A stretch of DNA of 32,000 nt from Candidatus Saccharimonadota bacterium (GTDB lineage Bacteria; Patescibacteriota; Saccharimonadia; Saccharimonadales; Saccharimonadaceae): NCBI GenBank assembly GCA_039920285.1, contig JBDSDX010000001.1, positions 300,001-332,000 on the forward strand. The letters are read 5' to 3'. Below the pieces are notes generated by a model. It had not been told where the DNA came from, searched no databases, and was given only the letters and a program-made list of their open reading frames with translations. A program made the translations under genes and the position numbers. Below are positions 214 to 28,120 of the stretch, one piece after another. Numbering within the stretch: the stretch's first letter is position 1; each line of letters starts with the position of its first letter.

Positions 214-245
214 AAAAAGCCCGCTCGTAGAGAGCGGGCTTTTTT
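214..245. terminator. Bidirectional rho-independent terminator
   Basis: Stem gcccgctc (219-226) pairs with gagcgggc (232-239) around a 5-nt loop. An A-run lies upstream and T6 downstream (240-245). It sits between convergent genes. Confidence 0.8.
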
Positions 246-1234: not shown

Positions 1235-2782
1235 ATGAAAGAGCTAATGTTAAAAATAAATACACGACACCCTCTCAATAACGCCCAAGGATTTACTATT
1301 GTCGAACTTCTTATCGTAATTGTCGTTATTGGTATTTTGGCTTCGATCACTATTGTTGCTTTTAGTGGTGTTCAGCAAAAAGCCGGCATTGCTTTGCTAA
1401 AATCTGATCTTTCGAGTGCGTCTCGGCAACTCGAAGTAGCAAAAGTTAATAATAATGACGTCTATCCGAGTACGACCACGGCTATCAAAAAAGCCGACAG
1501 TACTACCTACCAATACACTTATAATAGTGGAACAAATTATTATTGTTTAACGGCAACTTCTCCGAACGTTCAAAACGATTCGTATTATATTGATAGCAAT
1601 ACACTAATTGTGCAACAAGGACTATGTACTGGACATGTACTCCCTGGAGCTCCGGTGACTGGATGGAAGTATGTGTCTGCTGGAAGTAACGCTGCAACTT
1701 GTGGAATCGCCTCGAACGATAAAGTCTATTGTTGGGGATTCAATTATAATGGGCGTTTTGGTAACGGAACATCGACAAATAGTCTGTTACCGACGCCTAC
1801 TGATAGCTCTGGTGTTCTAGCCGGAAAGGTGATTACTGGACTTGAACTTGGACCAAGCTCTACCTGTGCGTACACATCAAATCAAGTATTCTGCTGGGGT
1901 GGAGGATCATTGGGAAATGGTGTTGCGGGTTCAAGCCTGGTTCCAGTAGCGACGACTATGTCAGGCGTGTTATCAGGGAAGACGATCCAATCTGTAGCAC
2001 TTTCACAAAACTTTGCCTGTTCGATAGCCTCAGATTCTAAGGAATATTGTTGGGGAGGGAGTAACTACAAAAACTTTATGACGAGTACAGGCTCACCGTC
2101 ATCAAGCACAGTCCCTGTTGCCTGGGATATTAGTAGCGTCTTTGGAGCCAACCCGATACAAGCAGTCAACGCATACGCCAACACCAAGTGTGTCGTGGTT
2201 GCTGGCTTGGCGTATTGTTGGGGGTATGCATCCTACGGTGAACTTGGAAATGGGACGACAAGTATGTCGACTTCGGTCCCGCAAGCAGTCGTAACGACAG
2301 GTGTCCTGAGTGGTAAAACTGTCACGAAAATATCGACAGGTGGAAGTAATACCTGCGCTATTGCATCTGGGGCAGCGTATTGCTGGGGATATGGACGCAA
2401 CGATGATTTGGGTGACGGCCTTGATACTGATAGTAACGTACCGGTCGCCGTCAGCACTGCGGGTGTTTTGAGTGGTAAAACCCTGACAGATATTAGTACA
2501 GGATCTAACTCAACATGTGCACTTGCAACTGACAAAAAAGTATATTGTTGGGGTAACCAGGCATATGGGCGTCTTGGTAATAGCTATGGCGCTACCTCTG
2601 GTCTTCCTGTCGCGGTGACAATGCCTGGGTTGTTGGCGACACAGCTATCAAGCGGTGATACACATAGTTGTATGCTTACGACGACAAACCAAATATATTG
2701 TTGGGGTTTGAATAGTAGCGGTCAACTAGGGGACGGGTCTAGCGCAGATAGAAGTGCTCCAGTGCTTGTCAGTCTTCCGTAA
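1235..2782 (+). CDS. Type IV pilin-like protein: prepilin N-terminal cleavage/methylation domain fused to a 7-repeat RCC1-type beta-propeller
   Basis: Class III signal ...NNAQG|FTIVELLIVIVVIGILASI, with Gly at 1289-1291 and Glu at +5. Seven repeats carry the (Y/F)CWG...G(x)LG(N/D)G signature of RCC1 blades. The ORF track starts at TTG 1208, but ATG 1235 or 1247 gives a normal short pilin leader. Confidence 0.8.
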   Translation: MKELMLKINTRHPLNNAQGFTIVELLIVIVVIGILASITIVAFSGVQQKAGIALLKSDLSSASRQLEVAKVNNNDVYPSTTTAIKKADSTTYQYTYNSGTNYYCLTATSPNVQNDSYYIDSNTLIVQQGLCTGHVLPGAPVTGWKYVSAGSNAATCGIASNDKVYCWGFNYNGRFGNGTSTNSLLPTPTDSSGVLAGKVITGLELGPSSTCAYTSNQVFCWGGGSLGNGVAGSSLVPVATTMSGVLSGKTIQSVALSQNFACSIASDSKEYCWGGSNYKNFMTSTGSPSSSTVPVAWDISSVFGANPIQAVNAYANTKCVVVAGLAYCWGYASYGELGNGTTSMSTSVPQAVVTTGVLSGKTVTKISTGGSNTCAIASGAAYCWGYGRNDDLGDGLDTDSNVPVAVSTAGVLSGKTLTDISTGSNSTCALATDKKVYCWGNQAYGRLGNSYGATSGLPVAVTMPGLLATQLSSGDTHSCMLTTTNQIYCWGLNSSGQLGDGSSADRSAPVLVSLP

Positions 2783-2831
2783 TAGCTAGCACTCTAGACT
2801 TTTGAGTGCCAATTTTATATACTGGTAACAG

Positions 2832-3935
2832 ATGAGTAAACGTGACTATTATGAAGTTCTTGGTATCGGCAAGTCAGCAAGTGCCGATGAAATTAAGAAG
2901 GCTTTTCGCCAGGCAGCCGTCAAACATCACCCCGATAAAGAGGGTGGTGATGAGGCAAAGTTTAAAGAAATTAATGAAGCATACGACGTTTTAAAGGACT
3001 CTCAAAAGCGTCAACGGTATGATCAATTTGGTCACGCGGGTGTTGGCGGTGCGAGTAGTGGTGGTTATGGCGGCGGCGGTGGCGGTGGCGGAAATCCTTT
3101 CCAAGGACAAAACGTTAACTTCGATTTCGGCGAGGGACTGGGTGATATCTTCAGTCAATTCTTTGGTGGTGGAAATCAACAACGTGGTCGGGCAGCTCAG
3201 CGTGGTCGAGATATTGAAGTAAATATGCAGTTAAGCTTCGAAGAAGCAGTATTTGGAGTTGAACAAACCATCGAACTTGAGATGGATGATGAATGTTCAC
3301 ACTGTCATGGAACGACGGTTGAACCAGGTCACGATATGAAGACATGTCCGACCTGTCACGGTTCTGGTCAACAAAACCGAGTTATGAACACAATGTTCGG
3401 CCCGATTCAACAAACAGTGACCTGTGAGACATGTCATGGTCGTGGTAAAGTTCCTGAAAAAATCTGTACAGTCTGTCATGGAAAAGGAACTGAGCGACGT
3501 AAGCAGTCGGTGAAGCTGAAGGTACCTGCAGGTATCGATGATGGCGCAACAATTCGTTTAAGTGGTCGTGGTGAAGCGATTGGTGGTGGTGAACGCGGAG
3601 ACCTCTATGTGAATATCCGTGTGAAAGCTCACAAACGTTTCACGCGCGAAGGTGATATTATCTTGTCCGAAGATCACATTCCAATGGTAGATGCAGCACT
3701 CGGGACTGAGATCGATGTCGAAACGGTTGATGGTACGGTTCGAATGAAAATTCCTGCTGGTACTCAATCTGGTACCGACTTCAAGCTATCTGGCCATGGC
3801 GTGACTCATATGAATAGCGAAAAACGTGGTCCACATATCGTCAATATTATTGTTGACATACCAACGAAACTCTCGAAACAACAAAAAGAAACTCTCGAAA
3901 CGTTCCAAAGTGGCAAAAAGCGCGGCGTCTTTTAA
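2832..3935 (+). CDS. dnaJ: Molecular chaperone DnaJ (type I Hsp40)
   Basis: J domain with HPD (KHHPDKEGG), a G/F-rich linker, four CxxCxGxG zinc-finger motifs and a C-terminal substrate-binding domain. Confidence 0.95.
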   Translation: MSKRDYYEVLGIGKSASADEIKKAFRQAAVKHHPDKEGGDEAKFKEINEAYDVLKDSQKRQRYDQFGHAGVGGASSGGYGGGGGGGGNPFQGQNVNFDFGEGLGDIFSQFFGGGNQQRGRAAQRGRDIEVNMQLSFEEAVFGVEQTIELEMDDECSHCHGTTVEPGHDMKTCPTCHGSGQQNRVMNTMFGPIQQTVTCETCHGRGKVPEKICTVCHGKGTERRKQSVKLKVPAGIDDGATIRLSGRGEAIGGGERGDLYVNIRVKAHKRFTREGDIILSEDHIPMVDAALGTEIDVETVDGTVRMKIPAGTQSGTDFKLSGHGVTHMNSEKRGPHIVNIIVDIPTKLSKQQKETLETFQSGKKRGVF

Positions 3936-3968: not shown

Positions 3969-5732
3969 ATGACTGAAGACGAACGAATCGCCATTCTTCC
4001 TAATATATATATGGAACGTGCAGGCAAGGGTAGCCGTGAAATGGCTGAGAAATTACTTGCTCCCCCTGAGGAACCTCTTGATGAAGTCGAAATTGCCGAA
4101 GTGAAAGCTTTCGAAAGAGAAATATGTGATTTTCCTGTCGATAGTGAACTGACTCTGCAAACAATGCTCCTGACACATAAAGGCGAAGCGCTTGAGGCTC
4201 CGGTTTTCTTTGCTGATGCTTTCTTGAAAGGCCAGGTCCATGTGGAGGGGCTTGAAGGTGTGTTGCGACAATTCCGGACAAAAGAGGACGTCTATACTTG
4301 GATTGCCCAGAGTGCTCTCAACGGCGATGACGGTGTTGATCCAAAGATTCTACGTGATCTCGCAAAACAGAGTTCGACGTATTACATAAATGAATCAACA
4401 CAGGCACTACTTCGGGGTGATGAACTTTCGCCGGTAATTAGTGATCATATGTCGATCGTGGCTGATCCACAGAAAGCATTACGCTACTCTCGTGCAGAAC
4501 TTGCCGCACGTGAGTATTTAATCGAATTGAGAGAGCACCATAAGTCGAGTGCAGGAAGTGTTGAAGGAGCGAAACGTGCTTTTGTTGATATTTATCTTAA
4601 ACGAGTAAACGGGTTAGTAGCTTCTGATATACCAGTTATGGAGTATTTGATGTCACAGTCCGAAATGATTGGTGATGAAGAAACTCTTGATGGAGCAAAA
4701 GCCGTAGTCCCTCACGGATTGTTTGAGGCAACTGGTACGCCCGAAAAACGCGATCGACTCAACAAACGACTTGATTATATTCGTAATGGTATGGGGCTTG
4801 ATGCTGAGGGTCATGCCAGCGCTGTTGACGAAGAAGTACTTGTCGAACCAACACAAGAAGGTGCTGGGAGTGTTGAACCCTCTGTTTATACTCTTGAAGA
4901 GCGCGAAATACTAATGAATACTGAATTACCTGCCGAAGTAGTACGAGAGCTTCTTGGTGAAATCTTGAATGAAGTTAATTTATTGAGCAGTGAATCAGCG
5001 AGTTCCTGGTATCCTGGTCGTGGTCACCGTGCGCAAGATGAACTCTTCCAAATTGTGACAAATCCGACAAAAGATAGCTTTGCAGTGAACGGTATTGACG
5101 GAGTTCTCATGATCCCGGGTGCTCCGTCATCAATTTACAAGATACTCACTGTCGCCGTGCATGAACTTGAACATATCAATCAAAACCAAGCTGACAAAAA
5201 ACTTGGTGAGTCACTGAAGATTGGGGTCATCAAGGGTCGACGCATTAGTATGCTACGGGAGACAGGTGCCAATATATCTCAGCGTAAAGCAGAACTCCAA
5301 TTATTTGGTGTCAGTAAACCAGTCGCTTTGACGTATGCACGTGCCATTCAAGCATTTGAACACGGCGAAAGTATGTTCGATGCGACGAGAGCATTCTATG
5401 ATGAAAAAAGGCGAACCTTCCCTGATGTCGGTGATGTGAGTGCGGCGAAAGAAGCCTCTGATCGGGTACTGCGACTTATTCTTAGTGGCGGCGTAAACTC
5501 TCAACCAATGTCGTATGCAGAGGAAAATATTATGAACGAAGAGTTAGCTTCGGCGTCGCCAGAGGCTCGTCGGCGTGCAACCATGATTACGAGTCTTGAT
5601 CTTGACGACCAAGAGCGGTTACACCGTTTTGGACTACTTCCGGAAGTCGGAGATGATTCAGTTGATTGGTTACGTATCGTTATAGAGAAGGTAGCGCCGT
5701 ATATTGACCAGGCGCTTAACGCTGCTGAGTAG
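3969..5732 (+). CDS. Uncharacterised 587-aa protein with an HExxH motif; possible DUF1704/MATCAP-like gluzincin peptidase
   Basis: HELEH lies at 5160-5174 (H398-H402). A candidate third ligand, Glu431, lies in LRETGANI 29 residues downstream. The context FAVNGIDGVLMIPG...VAVHELEH resembles the DUF1704 core. TGcTTTAAT-N6-ATG sits at the start. Confidence 0.4.
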   Translation: MTEDERIAILPNIYMERAGKGSREMAEKLLAPPEEPLDEVEIAEVKAFEREICDFPVDSELTLQTMLLTHKGEALEAPVFFADAFLKGQVHVEGLEGVLRQFRTKEDVYTWIAQSALNGDDGVDPKILRDLAKQSSTYYINESTQALLRGDELSPVISDHMSIVADPQKALRYSRAELAAREYLIELREHHKSSAGSVEGAKRAFVDIYLKRVNGLVASDIPVMEYLMSQSEMIGDEETLDGAKAVVPHGLFEATGTPEKRDRLNKRLDYIRNGMGLDAEGHASAVDEEVLVEPTQEGAGSVEPSVYTLEEREILMNTELPAEVVRELLGEILNEVNLLSSESASSWYPGRGHRAQDELFQIVTNPTKDSFAVNGIDGVLMIPGAPSSIYKILTVAVHELEHINQNQADKKLGESLKIGVIKGRRISMLRETGANISQRKAELQLFGVSKPVALTYARAIQAFEHGESMFDATRAFYDEKRRTFPDVGDVSAAKEASDRVLRLILSGGVNSQPMSYAEENIMNEELASASPEARRRATMITSLDLDDQERLHRFGLLPEVGDDSVDWLRIVIEKVAPYIDQALNAAE

Positions 5733-10660: not shown

Positions 10661-12103
10661 GTGCGGTGGCTACGACAACGAATTCATGTTTCTTGGTTAA
10701 TTGCACTGGCGAGTCTCGCGTTTGTTTTGGGCGTATTGCTGGCGCTGTTCGTAATGGTGGCACACTGGATATTCATCATATCTGCGCTCATTGGAGTGGG
10801 TGTGTCTTTTTGGCGCCAGAGGCTCTATATCATCCCGTTGATTTGTGTGAGTTTTGGAATGATTGGATTGGTGTACGGATCGATTACGAGAGGGGACTTG
10901 AGTATTTATCAACACTTTGTAGGAGTTGAACTTTCTCTCAGAGGTAGAATCAAAGAAGATCCGTCACTGAATGCCAAGCGCGAGCTTATTCTGCAACTTG
11001 ATTCGATTGCTCTCAGTGGCCACTCGTTACCGGGGACAATCTGGGTGAGTGCTCTGGGACATCCTGATGTCAAACGCGGCGACGAGGTAGTGGTGAAAGG
11101 GGAGTTAGGTGCAGGATTTGGAACCTATGCGGCGCTTATGTATCGGGGAAATATCATCACTATCACTCGCCCATCACCTGGCAATATTGGACGGGTAGTG
11201 CGTGATTGGTTCGCTGATGCAGTGCGACGAACCATTCCTGAACCGCAGGCGAGCTTAGGAATCGGATATCTGACTGGTCAAAAAAGTGCTTTACCATCTG
11301 AATTATCGCAAGCCTTACAGATTGCCGGACTGACGCACGTTGTGGTAGCAAGCGGATATAACTTAACGATTCTCGTGAGGTTAGCGAGACGATTATTTGT
11401 GAGAATATCAAAGTTTTTGTCAGCACTCTCATCATCGATTATGATTGTCTGTTTTATTGCAGTGACGGGACTAAGTCCGAGCATGACGAGGGCAGGGTTA
11501 GTGTCTGGACTTAGTTTGGCGAGTTGGTATTACGGTCGTCAATTTCACCCCTTTGTCTTACTCCCCTTTGCAGCGGCTATTACTGTGGCATGGCAACCAA
11601 GTTACGCATGGGGTGATATAGGGTGGGAGTTAAGTTTTTCGGCATTTGCTGCGGTGATGATCGTCGGACCATTAATGCAACGATTTTTCTTCGGTGAAAA
11701 AGATCCAGGAACATTACGACAAATTTTAGGGGAGACGGTTGCAGCCCATATCGTGACGATGCCGATTATTGTCATTGGGTTTGGTATGATTTCAAACATC
11801 GCTATCATTGCCAATATCATGATTGTGCCTTTAGTGCCCATAGCAATGTTGCTGACGTTTATATCAGGAGTGGTCGAGCTATCGGTACCTTCGATCGCTG
11901 AAATGATAAGTTTGCCAGCAACGTGGCTACTGACATATATGACAACAACAGCACAATGGCTAGCTGATTTGCCTTGGTCACAAACAAAAATACAGATTGA
12001 ATGGTGGGGAGCTGGTATCTATTACACTTTGTTGGTTGTCGCCTGCATTATCATGTGGCGAATAACGAAATTTAGTCTACGTTCGACTAATATCGTGAAG
12101 TGA
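10661..12103 (+). CDS. comEC: ComEC/Rec2 DNA internalisation channel, short form (OB-fold DUF4131 plus competence domain, no metallo-beta-lactamase domain)
   Basis: N-terminal TM helices, an OB-like segment (VVVKGEL) and the conserved core LGIGYLTGQKSALPSELSQALQIAGLTHVVVASGYNLTILV, followed by multiple TM helices. The GTG start is uncertain. Confidence 0.85.
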   Translation: MRWLRQRIHVSWLIALASLAFVLGVLLALFVMVAHWIFIISALIGVGVSFWRQRLYIIPLICVSFGMIGLVYGSITRGDLSIYQHFVGVELSLRGRIKEDPSLNAKRELILQLDSIALSGHSLPGTIWVSALGHPDVKRGDEVVVKGELGAGFGTYAALMYRGNIITITRPSPGNIGRVVRDWFADAVRRTIPEPQASLGIGYLTGQKSALPSELSQALQIAGLTHVVVASGYNLTILVRLARRLFVRISKFLSALSSSIMIVCFIAVTGLSPSMTRAGLVSGLSLASWYYGRQFHPFVLLPFAAAITVAWQPSYAWGDIGWELSFSAFAAVMIVGPLMQRFFFGEKDPGTLRQILGETVAAHIVTMPIIVIGFGMISNIAIIANIMIVPLVPIAMLLTFISGVVELSVPSIAEMISLPATWLLTYMTTTAQWLADLPWSQTKIQIEWWGAGIYYTLLVVACIIMWRITKFSLRSTNIVK

Positions 12104-12823
12104 CTATCGTGGTCGTTCAAGAGCGACAGCGCGGGCGAGATCGACGAAGGAATCATCTATAAGATCAGAACTAAATTCACCGTAACGTTTCGTCACCGCA
12201 GTATGAATCAAGAAATCGGCGAGGCGAGGGTTCTTTGGCAAGATTGATCCGTGAAGGTAGGTCCCAATGACATTTTTGTATCGTGCGCCTTCGGTGCCGT
12301 CGGTTGAATTATTGCCTGCACCTTTAAGAGTCATCGCGAGAGGGCGGGCTTCGATGAGAGTTGTTTGTCCACTATGATTTTCGTAGCCAACTATGTCGCC
12401 GAAGTCCTCGCTTCGAGTGACAGTGTTACCGATGAGCCGTTCGTTTGTTGCATGCGTTTCAATATCGAGAATACCAATACCTTTGAGAGTTGTATCATTT
12501 GATGTTTTGAAGAAGTTACCGAATAGTTGATAGAGACCACACACCATGAGCATAGGTATATCTGCATCGGCCCATTTTTTCAGTTGGGGAGAGATCTTGA
12601 GTAGGTCAGCATGGATCTTTTCTTGGCCACTGTCTTGTCCCCCGCCACCGACGATAATATCAACGTCTTTTGGTAATGTGTCACCAACATTGTAGGTAAT
12701 TGTCATTGGTTTATATCCATACCATTCAAGCCGTCGTTGCAAGACAAGGAGATTGCCTTGGTCACCATAAATATTCATATCTTTTGGATAGAGCTGTAGA
12801 ATAACAATTGGTTGTGTGGTCAT
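12104..12823 (-). CDS. gatD: Lipid II isoglutaminyl synthase, glutaminase subunit GatD (CobQ-type GATase)
   Basis: The length and motifs (MLMVCGLYQLFG with catalytic Cys, YLHGSILPKNP) fit GatD. ATGA overlap with murT at 12820-12823. Confidence 0.85.
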   Translation of the reverse strand: MTTQPIVILQLYPKDMNIYGDQGNLLVLQRRLEWYGYKPMTITYNVGDTLPKDVDIIVGGGGQDSGQEKIHADLLKISPQLKKWADADIPMLMVCGLYQLFGNFFKTSNDTTLKGIGILDIETHATNERLIGNTVTRSEDFGDIVGYENHSGQTTLIEARPLAMTLKGAGNNSTDGTEGARYKNVIGTYLHGSILPKNPRLADFLIHTAVTKRYGEFSSDLIDDSFVDLARAVALERPR

Positions 12824-14100
12824 GAGATTACCTCGACATCGGTGATTTTAGAAAGTTCTTTACGGAGCGCCAACATAGCGGTGTATGTACAGTAAATACG
12901 CTTTGGAGTATCTGGGTTGTTGTTGATGAATTGACGGAGCGCAAGCGGGAGTTCAGGCTCAATGTGGCCAATCGCTATTTCATCGTACTGCAAACGCAGT
13001 GCCATGTCATAACTGCGTATGCCTGACACTTCCGACACCCCAGTCTCCGATAGACTCTCAAAATCAACATCCCACAACCATGACATGTCGCGACCGTCAG
13101 CATAATTGTCGTTGATGGCAATCATTGCGGCGTAACCATTCGGTGAGAATGATTGGAGACCAAGACGAAACCCAGAGGGGTTTTTCACCAGGACAAGTTC
13201 AAGTGGTTGACCACCGACTTCGAGTGATTCACCGCGTCCAAAAGCAGGAGTAATGGTCGAGAGTGTTGAAAGTACAGAATCGAGTTTGGTATCTGAGTCT
13301 AAAATAGCGTGGGTAAGTGCAATTGCCGCAGCGCTGTTGAAGACGTTGTAGATACCGTTTAATTTCAGAGTTGTATCAAAGTCATGACCGCCGAGAGTAA
13401 AGGTTGCGTGTTCATCTTTGTAACTTTTCAAGATGACACTTGCCTCGGGACGAGTTGTTTTGGTAACTTTTCCGCTCCGGAGATCATCATCACTTGGAAA
13501 CGTAGCGAGAAGACTATCGCTCAAACCAAAGTACTCGACATGTTGCGTATCGAGTATGTCTTTAATAGCTAGAACGCGACGGTCTTCTCTGTTCAGAACA
13601 ACAGTGCCGGTCGTCGCGCTGGCAATTGCTTCAAGCATTTTTGCTGTTGCGTCGATTTCACCGAAACGATCGAGTTGATCACGCATCACATTTAGTATAA
13701 GGCTGTAGCGAGGGGGGATGGTTTGAACAAACTTCACCGCATGGGCTTCGTCGAGTTCCAAGACGGCGATGTCAGCATCAAGGTGACCTTTCATATCTAT
13801 ATCACCCAAAAGCGCGGCAGCGACGCCACGAGTAAAATTGCTCCCAGTCCGGTTGGTGAATACTTTGAGACCATGAGCTTCGAGAAGAGCGACGACAATT
13901 TTGGTTGTTGTCGTCTTTCCGTTTGTCCCACTGATCACGACAACGCCTTTAGAGAGGCTTTCAAGCGTATCTTTGATGAAGGTCGGGCTAATTTTTTCTA
14001 CAAATAAACCGGGAAGTGCTGAGCCACCACCGCGAAGACGGGCGACGTAGCGAACCGCTTTTCCTAGGATTACGACAAAGGGTTGAGGCATATGACCCAT
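12820..14100 (-). CDS. murT: Lipid II isoglutaminyl synthase, ligase subunit MurT (Mur ligase family with DUF1727 C-domain)
   Basis: P-loop ISGTNGKTTTTKIV, a Mur ligase central domain and a C-terminal DUF1727-like region, paired with gatD. The second ATG at 14091 (MPQPF...) is the better start, with TATAAT at 14104-14099 then 7 nt. Confidence 0.88.
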   Translation of the reverse strand: MGHMPQPFVVILGKAVRYVARLRGGGSALPGLFVEKISPTFIKDTLESLSKGVVVISGTNGKTTTTKIVVALLEAHGLKVFTNRTGSNFTRGVAAALLGDIDMKGHLDADIAVLELDEAHAVKFVQTIPPRYSLILNVMRDQLDRFGEIDATAKMLEAIASATTGTVVLNREDRRVLAIKDILDTQHVEYFGLSDSLLATFPSDDDLRSGKVTKTTRPEASVILKSYKDEHATFTLGGHDFDTTLKLNGIYNVFNSAAAIALTHAILDSDTKLDSVLSTLSTITPAFGRGESLEVGGQPLELVLVKNPSGFRLGLQSFSPNGYAAMIAINDNYADGRDMSWLWDVDFESLSETGVSEVSGIRSYDMALRLQYDEIAIGHIEPELPLALRQFINNNPDTPKRIYCTYTAMLALRKELSKITDVEVIS

Positions 14101-25828: not shown

Positions 25829-26059
25829 TGACTTTATTATCGCATATTTCGACGAACATGTTTATTACACTACGAGATAAGAAGAATAGTCCGTATATTT
25901 TTAAATAGGTGTTTATCTAGTTCGAGTTCTATCAAATAGCTTATGCTATTCAGACATATTTATAACTTTATAGCAAATATTGTTCGTGTCTTGTATACTA
26001 CCCCTGAGCTTTTCCACCTGGAATTTGCTCACCGTGCAGTCTGTTCGAGGGAGTAAATC

Positions 26060-27484
26060 TTGACAATCCAGACAGAAGAAAAGGTCGGCGCTGTCGATCG
26101 TTTTTTCGAGATAACCAAGCGGGGCTCAACGTTCCTGCGCGAGACTAACGGAGGTGTTGCAACCTTCTTGGCCATGAGCTACATCGTTGTGCTCAACCCC
26201 ATCATCCTCACCGGTGCGCCGGTCGAGGGATACACACCGTCGTTCCACTCAGTGGCGACGGTCACGGCGTTGGTTGCGGCAATCGCAACTCTCGCCATGG
26301 GTGTGATAGGAAAGGTGCCGTTTGCTCTGGCCGCAGGCCTGGGCATCAACGGGATCGTTGCTTTCCAACTTGCTCCCATCTTGGGCTACGAAGGTGCAAT
26401 GGCTGTCGTCGTTCTCGAAGGTATGATCACGTTCTTGCTGGTAATAACGGGTATTCGGGTGGCGCTATTCAACGCCATCCCGCTCGTTCTCAAGCAAGCG
26501 ATCGGGGCCGGCATCGGCGCTTTCCTGATCCTCATCGGTTTCGTGGATGGAGGTGTCGTCAAGGGAGCTCCTTTGGCGCCATCGCTCAACCTCGAGCCGC
26601 TGAACACTTGGCCCCGGCTCGTGTTCGTACTCGTCCTCATCGCGACCATCGTCATGGTGATCAAGAAGTGGAAGGGTGCGATCATCATCGCCATCGTCGG
26701 TGGTACGACCTTGGCGGTCATTATCGAGACGTTCGCTAAGCTCGGCAGTGCGGTTGACAACCCCGCTGGTTGGGTGCTGAACGTTCCAAGCCTTGCTGGC
26801 AAGGAAGTCGTCACCGGACCTGACTGGTCGGTGTTCGGGCACTTCAGTTTCGTCAACGCATTCAGTGCTGGCCCGATCCTGTTGGTATTCTTCGTGTTTA
26901 GCTTGATCCTCGCGGATCTGTTTGACACGTCGGGTACCATCGTGGCGGTGAGTAAGGGTGCTGATCTTCTCGACGAGAAGGGAAACCCTGCGCGCTTGGG
27001 TCGAATCCTCGGAGTCGACTCGCTGGCCGCTGCGCTTGGTGGATTCGCCGGCGTTTCGTCGAACACCACCTACATCGAATCGGCGACGGGTGTACGTGCC
27101 GGAGCCCGCACGGGCTTCGCAAACGTCATTACCGCAGTCCTGTTCCTGGTGGCGATATTGCTGACACCGCTAGTTCAGTTGGTGCCGTCGGAAGCGGCTG
27201 CACCCGTGCTGGTCGTCGTCGGTAGCCTGATGGTGTGGGAGTTCGTTGGCGTCGCCGTCAAGGAACACGCTGACGAACTGGCTCTCGCGAGTGTGCTCGG
27301 CATTCTTGTCATGCCGTTCACGTACAGCATTACCAATGGCATCGGCGTGGCGTTCATCGTCTATACCGTGTCGATGGTGGCCAACAAGAAGGCGCGCCTG
27401 CTACACCCGCTGATGTGGGTAATGGCTGTGGCGTTCATCGTCTACTTCGCGCTGCCGCTTATCCGTATGTGGTTGGGGATATAG
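26060..27484 (+). CDS. NCS2/AzgA-family purine (adenine/guanine/hypoxanthine) permease, compositionally foreign
   Basis: FFEITKRGSTFLRETNGGVATFLAMSYIVVLNP plus about 12 TM helices is typical of AzgA/PbuG-type permeases. TTG start with SD GAGGGAG (26046-26052). My hand counts of G+C are 39/60 (26221-26280) and 34/60 (26641-26700), against 25/60 in apt (27661-27720). Confidence 0.88.
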   Translation: MTIQTEEKVGAVDRFFEITKRGSTFLRETNGGVATFLAMSYIVVLNPIILTGAPVEGYTPSFHSVATVTALVAAIATLAMGVIGKVPFALAAGLGINGIVAFQLAPILGYEGAMAVVVLEGMITFLLVITGIRVALFNAIPLVLKQAIGAGIGAFLILIGFVDGGVVKGAPLAPSLNLEPLNTWPRLVFVLVLIATIVMVIKKWKGAIIIAIVGGTTLAVIIETFAKLGSAVDNPAGWVLNVPSLAGKEVVTGPDWSVFGHFSFVNAFSAGPILLVFFVFSLILADLFDTSGTIVAVSKGADLLDEKGNPARLGRILGVDSLAAALGGFAGVSSNTTYIESATGVRAGARTGFANVITAVLFLVAILLTPLVQLVPSEAAAPVLVVVGSLMVWEFVGVAVKEHADELALASVLGILVMPFTYSITNGIGVAFIVYTVSMVANKKARLLHPLMWVMAVAFIVYFALPLIRMWLGI

Positions 27485-27501
27485 ATCCTGACCCGTCGGA
27501 C

Positions 27502-27539
27502 GGGGAAGTAGTGGTCATTCAATTGACCACTACTTCCCC
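27502..27539 (+). terminator. Perfect 16-bp hairpin without a U-tract (I-shaped terminator type)
   Basis: ggggaagtagtggtca (27502-27517), loop ttcaat, tgaccactacttcccc (27524-27539), followed by acacaacaacc. Confidence 0.5.
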
Positions 27540-27552
27540 ACACAACAACCCA

Positions 27553-27579
27553 AGAGGCCTTACGGGCTTCTATTTTTTT
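27553..27579 (+). terminator. Canonical rho-independent terminator
   Basis: Stem agaggcc/ggcttct (one G-U pair), 5-nt loop, then aTTTTTTT. Confidence 0.6.
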
Positions 27580-27604
27580 GAAAAAAAATTAATAATGAAT
27601 ATAT

Positions 27605-28120
27605 ATGAATTATGCAGACCACATTCGAACCATTGAGGACTTTCCAGAACCAGGTATCCTTTTTTATGACATTGCTCCGCTTTTAGGAAATGGCGCTATC
27701 TTTGCGAATGCGATTCACGATATGGCGGAGCCACTTCGCGGCCGGGTGAATCAAGTCGTCGGGTTGGATGCTCGTGGTTTTGTTTTTGGCGCTGCTATGG
27801 CTCTCGAACTAGGGGTTGGCCTAACGATGGTTCGAAAAGCCGGAAAACTCCCCGGCGAGACTATACAGCTAGACTACGCTTTGGAATACGGGACAAATAC
27901 CATTGAACTTCAAACTGACACTCTGGGGTCTAAAGACAAAGTCGTACTGGTTGACGATGTTATCGCTACTGGAGGAACAGCAGTTGCGAGTGTTGAATTA
28001 GTTCGTCGAACTGGTGCAACGATTGTTGAATTTTGTAGTGCAATAGACCTGCCTAGTCTAGGAGGGTCTGAACTCATTAAAGCAACCGACGTTCCGGTTA
28101 GATCTTTAGTTTCGTTCTAA
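27605..28120 (+). CDS. apt: Adenine phosphoribosyltransferase
   Basis: IRTIEDFPEPGILFYDIAPLL at the N-terminus and the PRPP-binding motif VVLVDDVIATGGTA. 171 aa. Confidence 0.93.
   Translation: MNYADHIRTIEDFPEPGILFYDIAPLLGNGAIFANAIHDMAEPLRGRVNQVVGLDARGFVFGAAMALELGVGLTMVRKAGKLPGETIQLDYALEYGTNTIELQTDTLGSKDKVVLVDDVIATGGTAVASVELVRRTGATIVEFCSAIDLPSLGGSELIKATDVPVRSLVSF

Follow-up and report, generated by a model that had tools for sequence, protein, structure and literature searches.

A modular type IV pilin carrying a seven-bladed RCC1 propeller, a candidate host-binding protein of a Saccharibacteria-type bacterium

Modular pilins were defined by Raynaud et al. (PNAS 2021; PMC8179133), who catalogued 264 architectures and whose Dataset S1 already lists combinations of IPR012902 with the RCC1 entries IPR000408/PF13540; there, PilB of S. 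sanguinis is a pilus-borne adhesin, and modular pilins are modelled at pilus tips. The RCC1 propeller itself is known from PilX2 of Nanosynbacter lyticus TM7x, a minor pilin that belongs to the T4P-2 thin pilus (T4P, type IV pilus), bears a hepta-bladed RCC1 propeller and has been proposed as the adhesin of that pilus (Grossman et al., ISME J 2025, PMC12206443; bioRxiv 2024, PMC11623550). According to the same work, pilX2 lies beside pilA2, and when it is deleted host binding drops to roughly half and competitive fitness is lost; the mutant still assembles thin pili and keeps its competence, and no PilD signal was predicted in PilX2. T4P genes, in general terms, have been reported as nearly universal in Saccharibacteria and in the candidate phyla radiation (CPR). 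The gene described here lies in a stretch of 32,000 nucleotides from Candidatus Saccharimonadota bacterium (GenBank assembly GCA_039920285.1, contig JBDSDX010000001.1, positions 300,001 to 332,000; hereafter the window), and it encodes a canonical prepilin signal, a pilin and a complete seven-bladed RCC1 propeller, an architecture confirmed by hidden Markov models (HMMs), structure prediction and fold search. Both the modular-pilin concept and the RCC1-propeller pilin adhesin are already published, and the window gene is a further member, well defined, of a widespread subfamily that combines a canonical Glu5 pilin with an RCC1 propeller and is distinct from PilX2. What is added here is that distinction, the use of one carrier module across many effector modules, a conserved placement before a CIRCE-controlled dnaJ in the lineage, and unexpectedly close homologues of the carrier module in high-GC Actinomycetales.

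The open reading frame (ORF) runs uninterrupted from 1208 to 2782 on the + strand, and its parts are the following (aa, amino acids; pLDDT, predicted local distance difference test):

1235..2782, + strand: complete gene of the modular pilin and its RCC1 propeller; 515 aa if read from ATG 1235, but probably 511 aa, with the start at ATG 1247; stop codon 2780-2782.
1235..1291, + strand: class III (prepilin) leader peptide MKELMLKINTRHPLNNAQG, from the sequence, PF07963, TIGR02532 and the motif alignment.
1292..1450, + strand: the mature pilin's alpha1 helix, which begins at Phe20 with FTIVELLIVIVVIGILASITIVAF, extends to about residue 72 and has Glu as its fifth residue; from the AlphaFold2 helix 22-72 and matches to solved pilins.
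1451..1633, + strand: pilin head, residues 73-133, with a conserved 'YP' motif and ending at 'GLCTGH'; from AlphaFold2, Foldseek and Cys covariation.
1634..1663, + strand: linker, residues 134-143 (VLPGAPVTGW), from the pilin module to the propeller; pLDDT of the block, 74.
1664..2779, + strand: seven-bladed RCC1-like beta-propeller, residues 144-515; from Pfam (RCC1, RCC1_2, WD40_RLD), AlphaFold2 and Foldseek.

The fusion of a pilin to an RCC1 propeller within this single gene is confirmed, far beyond chance. Pfam and NCBIfam matches were judged against the curated cut-offs, which all the pilin and RCC1 families given here exceed. At the N-terminus these are N_methyl (PF07963; 27.6 bits against a cut-off of 21.2, aa 15-39) and IV_pilin_GFxxxE (TIGR02532; 25.5 against 16.3), to which NCBIfam adds sub-threshold similarity to GspG, PilA and ComGC over alpha1, and in the remainder RCC1 (PF00415; E 1.4e-34, five stretches), RCC1_2 (PF13540; E 1.7e-30) and the RCC1-like domain WD40_RLD (PF25390; 182 bits against 150). 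The co-occurrence of PF07963 with PF00415/PF13540, which the initial annotation had proposed as a check, is hence found with both modules above the curated cut-offs. A class III signal is taken as a short basic leader ending in Gly(-1), followed by Phe(+1) and Glu(+5) within about 20 hydrophobic residues, and the protein shows precisely these features, reading …NNAQG|FTIVELLIVIVVIGILASITIVAF with Gly(-1), Phe(+1) and Glu(+5). The canonical signal G|FTIVE, read at first from the letters alone, is borne out by both N-terminal family matches and by the G|FT[IL][IV]E motif aligned in 31 homologues, and PilD is predicted to cleave after Gly19 (codon 1289-1291, …NAQG|FTIVE). As for the start codon, ATG 1247 is likelier than ATG 1235, because the leaders of the closest homologues are 14-15 residues long and two of them (MLRIN… and MLTTN…) align with the second Met.

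What follows the signal had been taken for a short pilin-like linker after the hydrophobic part of alpha1. That description does not hold, since the segment is a full pilin head domain and the true linker comprises only about 10 residues, so that the N-terminal module before it is a complete small pilin module. In the AlphaFold2 models alpha1 is a helix of 51 residues (22-72), whose sequence matches pilins and pseudopilins of known structure (Geobacter PilA-N, 8e-10; GspG, 3.6e-6; Thermus PilA, 3.6e-5), and the head contributes three strands (residues 91-97, 102-108 and 116-120), with block-mean pLDDT values of 82-96 across two models; the N-terminal 143 residues modelled alone reach a pLDDT of 88.8. 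The fold is that of a pilin, i.e., a long alpha1 packed on a small antiparallel beta-sheet head, and the top three Foldseek matches of the module in the PDB are type IV pilins, namely Shewanella 4d40_A and two chains of Thermus TTHA1221 (4bhr_B and 5g2f_A), with probabilities of 0.96-1.00 and weak E-values (6e-3 to 0.19); the Thermus competence pilin TTHA1222 appears at rank 8. Within the head, Cys104 (1544-1546) and Cys131 (1625-1627) covary: 20 of the 32 aligned sequences have Cys at the two sites, five have an aromatic residue or His together with Trp instead, and a lone Cys occurs in only two. This covariation suggests a disulphide that would close the pilin head.

The whole protein was modelled by AlphaFold2 on an alignment (A1) of 32 full-length homologues, with a pLDDT of 87.9 and a predicted template modelling score (pTM) of 0.75. 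A complete seven-bladed propeller is predicted, as the initial annotation had anticipated in suggesting this modelling: 28 strands form seven blades of four strands each, approximately at residues 144-188, 202-239, 251-297, 308-351, 363-405, 417-460 and 468-511. All seven repeat strings quoted at the outset are found in the translation from ATG 1235, and the RCC1-type repeats, in tandem and of about 50-60 residues each, are marked by seven [VEAI][YF]CWG motifs, repeat 3 being degenerate. The corresponding blade 3 (251-297) is degenerate in the window protein as well as in its three closest relatives, and its loop 282-288 is modelled with low confidence. The closed seven-bladed propeller is also recovered by Foldseek in the PDB, where the best match is Arabidopsis UVR8 (E 1e-32, template modelling (TM) score 0.90 normalised to the target, root-mean-square deviation (rmsd) 2.2 Å, 29% identity), followed by the RCC1-like domains (RLDs) of HERC1/2, RCC1 and RPGR. 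All of them have the fold and the repeat family in common with the window propeller (for UVR8, 28-29% identity, TM 0.86-0.90 normalised to the target and rmsd 2.2-2.6 Å over the comparisons made). Unlike these intracellular eukaryotic proteins, the window protein would be extracellular, is fused to a pilin and has a Cys pair in each blade (156/166, 211/220, 262/272, 319/328, 374/383, 428/438 and 479/489), one pair per blade being invariant in all 32 aligned homologues. These pairs may form intrablade disulphides, which would fit an extracellular propeller.

For the comparison with PilX2, this protein was recovered indirectly: the published primer PilX2_Up_R, in reverse complement, served as the query against metagenome contigs. 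On a TM7x-like contig, the gene right downstream of the primer site (L090:2917-4647) encodes an RCC1 pilin of 576 aa, taken as PilX2, which is flanked by four canonical pilins (163, 154, 275 and 142 aa) in a five-pilin cluster; the 142-aa ORF is presumably PilA2. Both PilX2 and the window protein are pilin-like proteins of Saccharibacteria with a C-terminal hepta-bladed RCC1 propeller. Nonetheless, PilX2 starts with MMRKKDGYSLVLIVL… (MMRKKDGYSLVLIVLMSTF…), lacks Glu5 and gives no match to N_methyl or TIGR02532, and this absence resembles tip subunits of the GspK/PilX type. By BLASTP only the propellers of the two proteins align (34% identity over 400 aa), and several RCC1 proteins devoid of a pilin signal, whose N-termini were checked, are closer to the window propeller (40-46% identity) than PilX2 is; the window alpha1, in turn, is 39% identical over 72 aa to the major pilin PilA2 of TM7x. 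Furthermore, PilX2 belongs to a pilin cluster, whereas the window gene is solitary, with a threonine/asparagine-rich (T/N-rich) ORF and dnaJ as neighbours. An orthologue of PilX2 would align over its full length, with the same non-canonical N-terminal module, and be syntenic with pilA2 and the minor pilin cluster (T4P locus three). Neither was found, and orthology was rejected on the N-terminal modules that do not align, the lack of Glu5 and N_methyl in PilX2 and the different loci. PilX2 and the window protein are of one kind without being orthologues; their carrier classes and loci differ, and they may be independent fusions.

Other pilus adhesins resemble the window protein in part. PilB (vWA-pilin) and PilC (lectin-pilin) of S. 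sanguinis likewise consist of a small IPR012902 pilin module, a short linker and a bulky effector that is not specific to pili, and the window protein is a modular pilin in the sense of Raynaud et al. 2021; the effector is an RCC1 propeller here, and a vWA or ConA-like lectin domain in PilB and PilC. The PilY1/PilC tip adhesins of Pseudomonas and Neisseria also place a beta-propeller adhesin at a type IV pilus tip; however, PilY1 is not a pilin, since it has neither class III signal nor alpha1 and docks on minor pilins, and its propeller belongs to a different family. The window protein, with its pilin N-terminus and no Pfam match to a PilY1/PilC domain at E<=0.01, is not an adhesin of that type.

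The family to which the window protein belongs is found mainly in Saccharibacteria. In 50 of the 120 best database matches, the query being one of the 50, a signal of the type G|FT[IL][IV]E precedes RCC1 repeats; most of these proteins have 500-535 aa and a few about 885-897 aa; those with a name come nearly all from Saccharibacteria, their source names being 'prepilin-type N-terminal cleavage/methylation domain-containing protein' or 'regulator of chromosome condensation [Candidatus Saccharibacteria bacterium]'. When GTDB species representatives were scanned with the signal pattern GFTI[VI]ELL[VI], almost all records returned were from Saccharibacteria and Patescibacteria, neither the window's own genome nor TM7x being among them. 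The N-terminal module has a wider distribution than its combination with RCC1: it recurs as a carrier in other Saccharibacteria pilins (36-61% identity in the best tblastn segment), fused to NHL, BNR-like and lactonase-type seven-bladed propellers and to LamG3/ConA-like, Fibrinogen_C, FGE-sulfatase-like and Fib_succ_major modules. Most of these fusions can be aligned through the head, the Cys pair and the '…G.C.GH' boundary, and the linker is the point at which the homologues diverge into different C-terminal modules, a pattern expected of modular pilins made of a carrier plus an effector. The loci are:

L004:11644-13053, L012:574-1980, L012:3383-4762 and L014:5580-6749: other carrier-module pilins of Saccharibacteria.
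L018:805-2040, L019:7213-8247 and L024:2476-3483: further carrier-module pilins of Saccharibacteria; together with those of the line above, their C-terminal modules are lactonase-type and NHL propellers, BNR-like, Fib_succ_major, FGE-sulfatase-like, LamG3 and Fibrinogen_C.
L016:10001-10903 and L055:10007-10993: Actinomycetales carrier-module pilins, from a contig of 169 kb of a metagenome-assembled genome (MAG) and an isolate scaffold of Microbacterium sorbitolivorans.

The last two come from high-GC (about 61%) Actinomycetales and are 50% (118 aa) and 44% (108 aa) identical to the window module over the whole carrier, the 50%-identical one including both Cys residues and the GH boundary; in the MAG protein the carrier is fused to an NHL propeller. 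Actinomycetales are the host phylum of Saccharibacteria, and the presence of the carrier at 44-50% identity over the whole module in these high-GC genomes suggests a possible exchange of pilin modules between epibiont and host phylum. A further step, which we hold to be possible but rather doubtful, would be that the window gene is one cassette of an interchangeable adhesin repertoire, in which one conserved, disulphide-stapled carrier pilin is recombined, in solitary genes dispersed over Saccharibacteria genomes, with many alternative ligand-binding modules (RCC1, NHL, BNR-like and lactonase-type propellers, and ConA-like, fibrinogen-like and FGE/C-type-lectin-like domains) that jointly set the host range. 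If that were true, such modules would set host range much as the receptor-binding proteins of phages do.

What would such a protein do? It is fairly probable that this type IV pilin, of the modular ('grafted') kind and from a Saccharibacteria-type bacterium, is processed by PilD and displayed at low copy in a T4P, its propeller being exposed at the tip or close to it and binding a structure on the host surface. The class III signal peptide would insert the pilin into the membrane, the prepilin peptidase would cut after Gly19 and methylate the resulting Phe1, and the canonical alpha1 with its Glu5, together with the small and probably disulphide-stapled head, would allow co-polymerisation with a major pilin of the PilA type. 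A propeller of about 370 residues on a linker of about 10 should be tolerated only at low copy, because of its size and of the shortness of that linker, its likeliest place being the tip of the filament or its vicinity, where it would act as an adhesin towards some structure on the surface of the host bacterium. Processing, incorporation into the pilus, tip position and the role in ligand or host binding are proposed here from family knowledge and by analogy with PilB and PilX2. The bulky minor or tip pilin of an epibiont, serving as a candidate host-binding module, that had been put forward in the initial annotation fits the facts, given that the named homologues are nearly all from Saccharibacteria and that PilX2 aids host binding (PMC12206443), its function being transferred by analogy. 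For the ultrasmall epibiotic Saccharibacteria, modules displayed on pili are the leading candidates for host recognition, and a carrier pilin displaying a panel of propeller and lectin-like modules provides concrete candidates for determinants of host range.

Several observations weigh against this proposal. The Foldseek E-values of the pilin head are weak (best, 6e-3), the top fold matches of the propeller are protein-interaction propellers of the RCC1/UVR8 type and not lectins, and only the propeller aligns with PilX2, hence the functional transfer by analogy. In at least one saccharibacterium, M. amalyticus, the thin filaments that contact the host are not T4P. As to the position in the filament, Glu5 is typical of subunits sitting below another subunit, and the tip-most GspK/PilX-like subunits often lack it in established pilus assembly models; its presence here argues against the very tip-most position, so that 'very tip' is uncertain. 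Finally, pilus machinery, a prepilin peptidase and any other pilin are all absent within the 32 kb examined of the 795-kb contig: every ORF of at least 100 aa judged to be a plausible gene was run through Pfam, with no pilB, pilC, pilD or pilM-Q among them, and a six-frame motif scan found no second ORF with a class III signal in the window. The locus is, as had been noted from the start, an orphan pilin locus.

That solitude, seen here and in most of the relatives examined, with no machinery within +/-10 kb, could also be explained by a receptor anchored at the surface. Its class III signal and alpha1 would then merely bring the propeller out of the cell and hold it in the membrane or envelope, and the protein would never be polymerised into a long pilus, much like the archaeal binding proteins with a class III signal or short pseudopilus stubs. 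Saccharibacteria indeed hold many scattered N_methyl proteins with large and diverse C-terminal modules, and a bulky propeller on a short linker would be sterically awkward within the filament body. However, the pilin module is conserved in its entirety (Glu5, full-length alpha1, head with its Cys pair), Glu5 and the head would be needless for a mere anchor, the head is common to small PilA-like pilins, and the precedents PilB and PilX2 behave as pilus components, all of which makes a simple anchored receptor unlikely. Much less probable appears a role in a DNA-uptake (competence) pilus, where the ligand of the propeller would be extracellular DNA or a competence partner, by analogy with the ComZ/ComP-type DNA-binding pilins and with the chromatin/DNA contacts of eukaryotic RCC1. 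Saccharibacteria are described as naturally competent (PMC10187176), comEC is situated some 8 kb downstream of the pilin gene, and one homologue (P0025) is encoded back-to-back with dprA. Nevertheless, comEC is not operon-linked to the pilin, with several unrelated genes on both strands in between, the closest homologues sit in the dnaK-dnaJ region instead, the TM7x mutants in pilX2 and other T4P-2 genes had wild-type competence, and no DNA-binding feature was identified in the window protein. Lastly, metagenome-derived sequence can be chimeric, and a mis-assembly or frameshift might have joined a pilin gene to a separate RCC1 gene, an artefact in favour of which nothing specific speaks. It is effectively refuted, because the identical protein is found on an independent Logan contig of 8.7 kb and about 50 homologues from many independent assemblies show the same collinear architecture at roughly 500-530 aa.

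Regarding its genomic context, the pilin gene has the dnaK region on one side and a CIRCE-controlled dnaJ on the other, a placement kept in the closest relatives, and its unit is bounded by the following elements:

214..244, no strand assigned: strong stem-loop terminator with A and T runs at its flanks; upstream boundary, closing the Transgly_assoc gene (9-212, + strand).
2786..2812, + strand: CIRCE (HrcA operator) inverted repeat CTAGCACTC-N9-GAGTGCCAA, with 2 mismatches and 0 expected by chance; downstream boundary of the pilin unit.

In the closest homologues (60% identity) the gene order is hrcA, grpE, two small unannotated ORFs on opposite strands, dnaK, a 124-aa ORF, Transgly_assoc, the pilin-RCC1 gene, CIRCE and a cut-off ORF, which by synteny with the window is probably dnaJ. 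The same CIRCE arrangement is present in L002/L003 (11537-11559), where a second CIRCE precedes hrcA. In the window, CIRCE begins 4 nt past the pilin stop and overlaps a promoter-like site (TAGACT-17-TATACT, 2795-2823) that precedes dnaJ (2832-3935). Co-transcription of the pilin gene with dnaJ under heat-shock control was considered; since dnaJ carries its own CIRCE and promoter-like site right after the pilin stop, the pilin gene is probably a separate transcription unit, although no terminator was found after it and read-through into dnaJ is possible. The scan of the + strand upstream of the pilin gene yielded no promoter of the sigma-70 type; by eye, TTGACA (1109-1114) is followed by a 16-nt spacer and TATTAA. 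Other homologues are placed differently: the one that is back-to-back with dprA lies beside two further ORFs with a class III signal, the 275-aa one with an N_methyl match, and another is alone next to leuS, with a pilin bearing a BNR/sortilin-type propeller 6.6 kb away.

Between the terminator and the pilin gene lies the T/N-rich ORF (264-1073, - strand), divergent from the pilin gene, which encodes 269 aa with an N-terminal transmembrane helix, contains a 60-bp unit repeated in tandem about 3.5 times (366-581) and matches no Pfam family; the terminator at 214-244 may also serve this ORF, which converges on it. The initial annotation had set the pilin next to a T/N-rich surface protein, and the adjacency stands, but a functional link between the two was rejected: the syntenic loci of the 60%-identical relatives have merely a 40-bp gap in place of this ORF, which is therefore not a conserved partner. 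Its region displays a strong strand composition skew (GC skew 0.33).

The other genes of the window are housekeeping ones, including dnaJ, a GT4 glycosyltransferase, ATP-grasp and RimK ligases, comEC, gatD/murT, clpB, rsgA and a permease, among others. Between dnaJ and the GT4 gene, a 587-aa ORF (3969-5732, + strand) with no Pfam or NCBIfam match has an HExxH-like motif (VHELEHIN) and is kept beside dnaJ on an independent Logan contig. At 10661-14100, about 8 kb of unrelated genes away from the pilin, comEC (competence channel) adjoins gatD/murT (peptidoglycan amidation). The GC content rises to 0.57/0.53 at 26001-28000, against a window mean of 0.45, coinciding with the Xan_ur_permease ORF (26060-27484), and this jump may reflect a horizontal acquisition.

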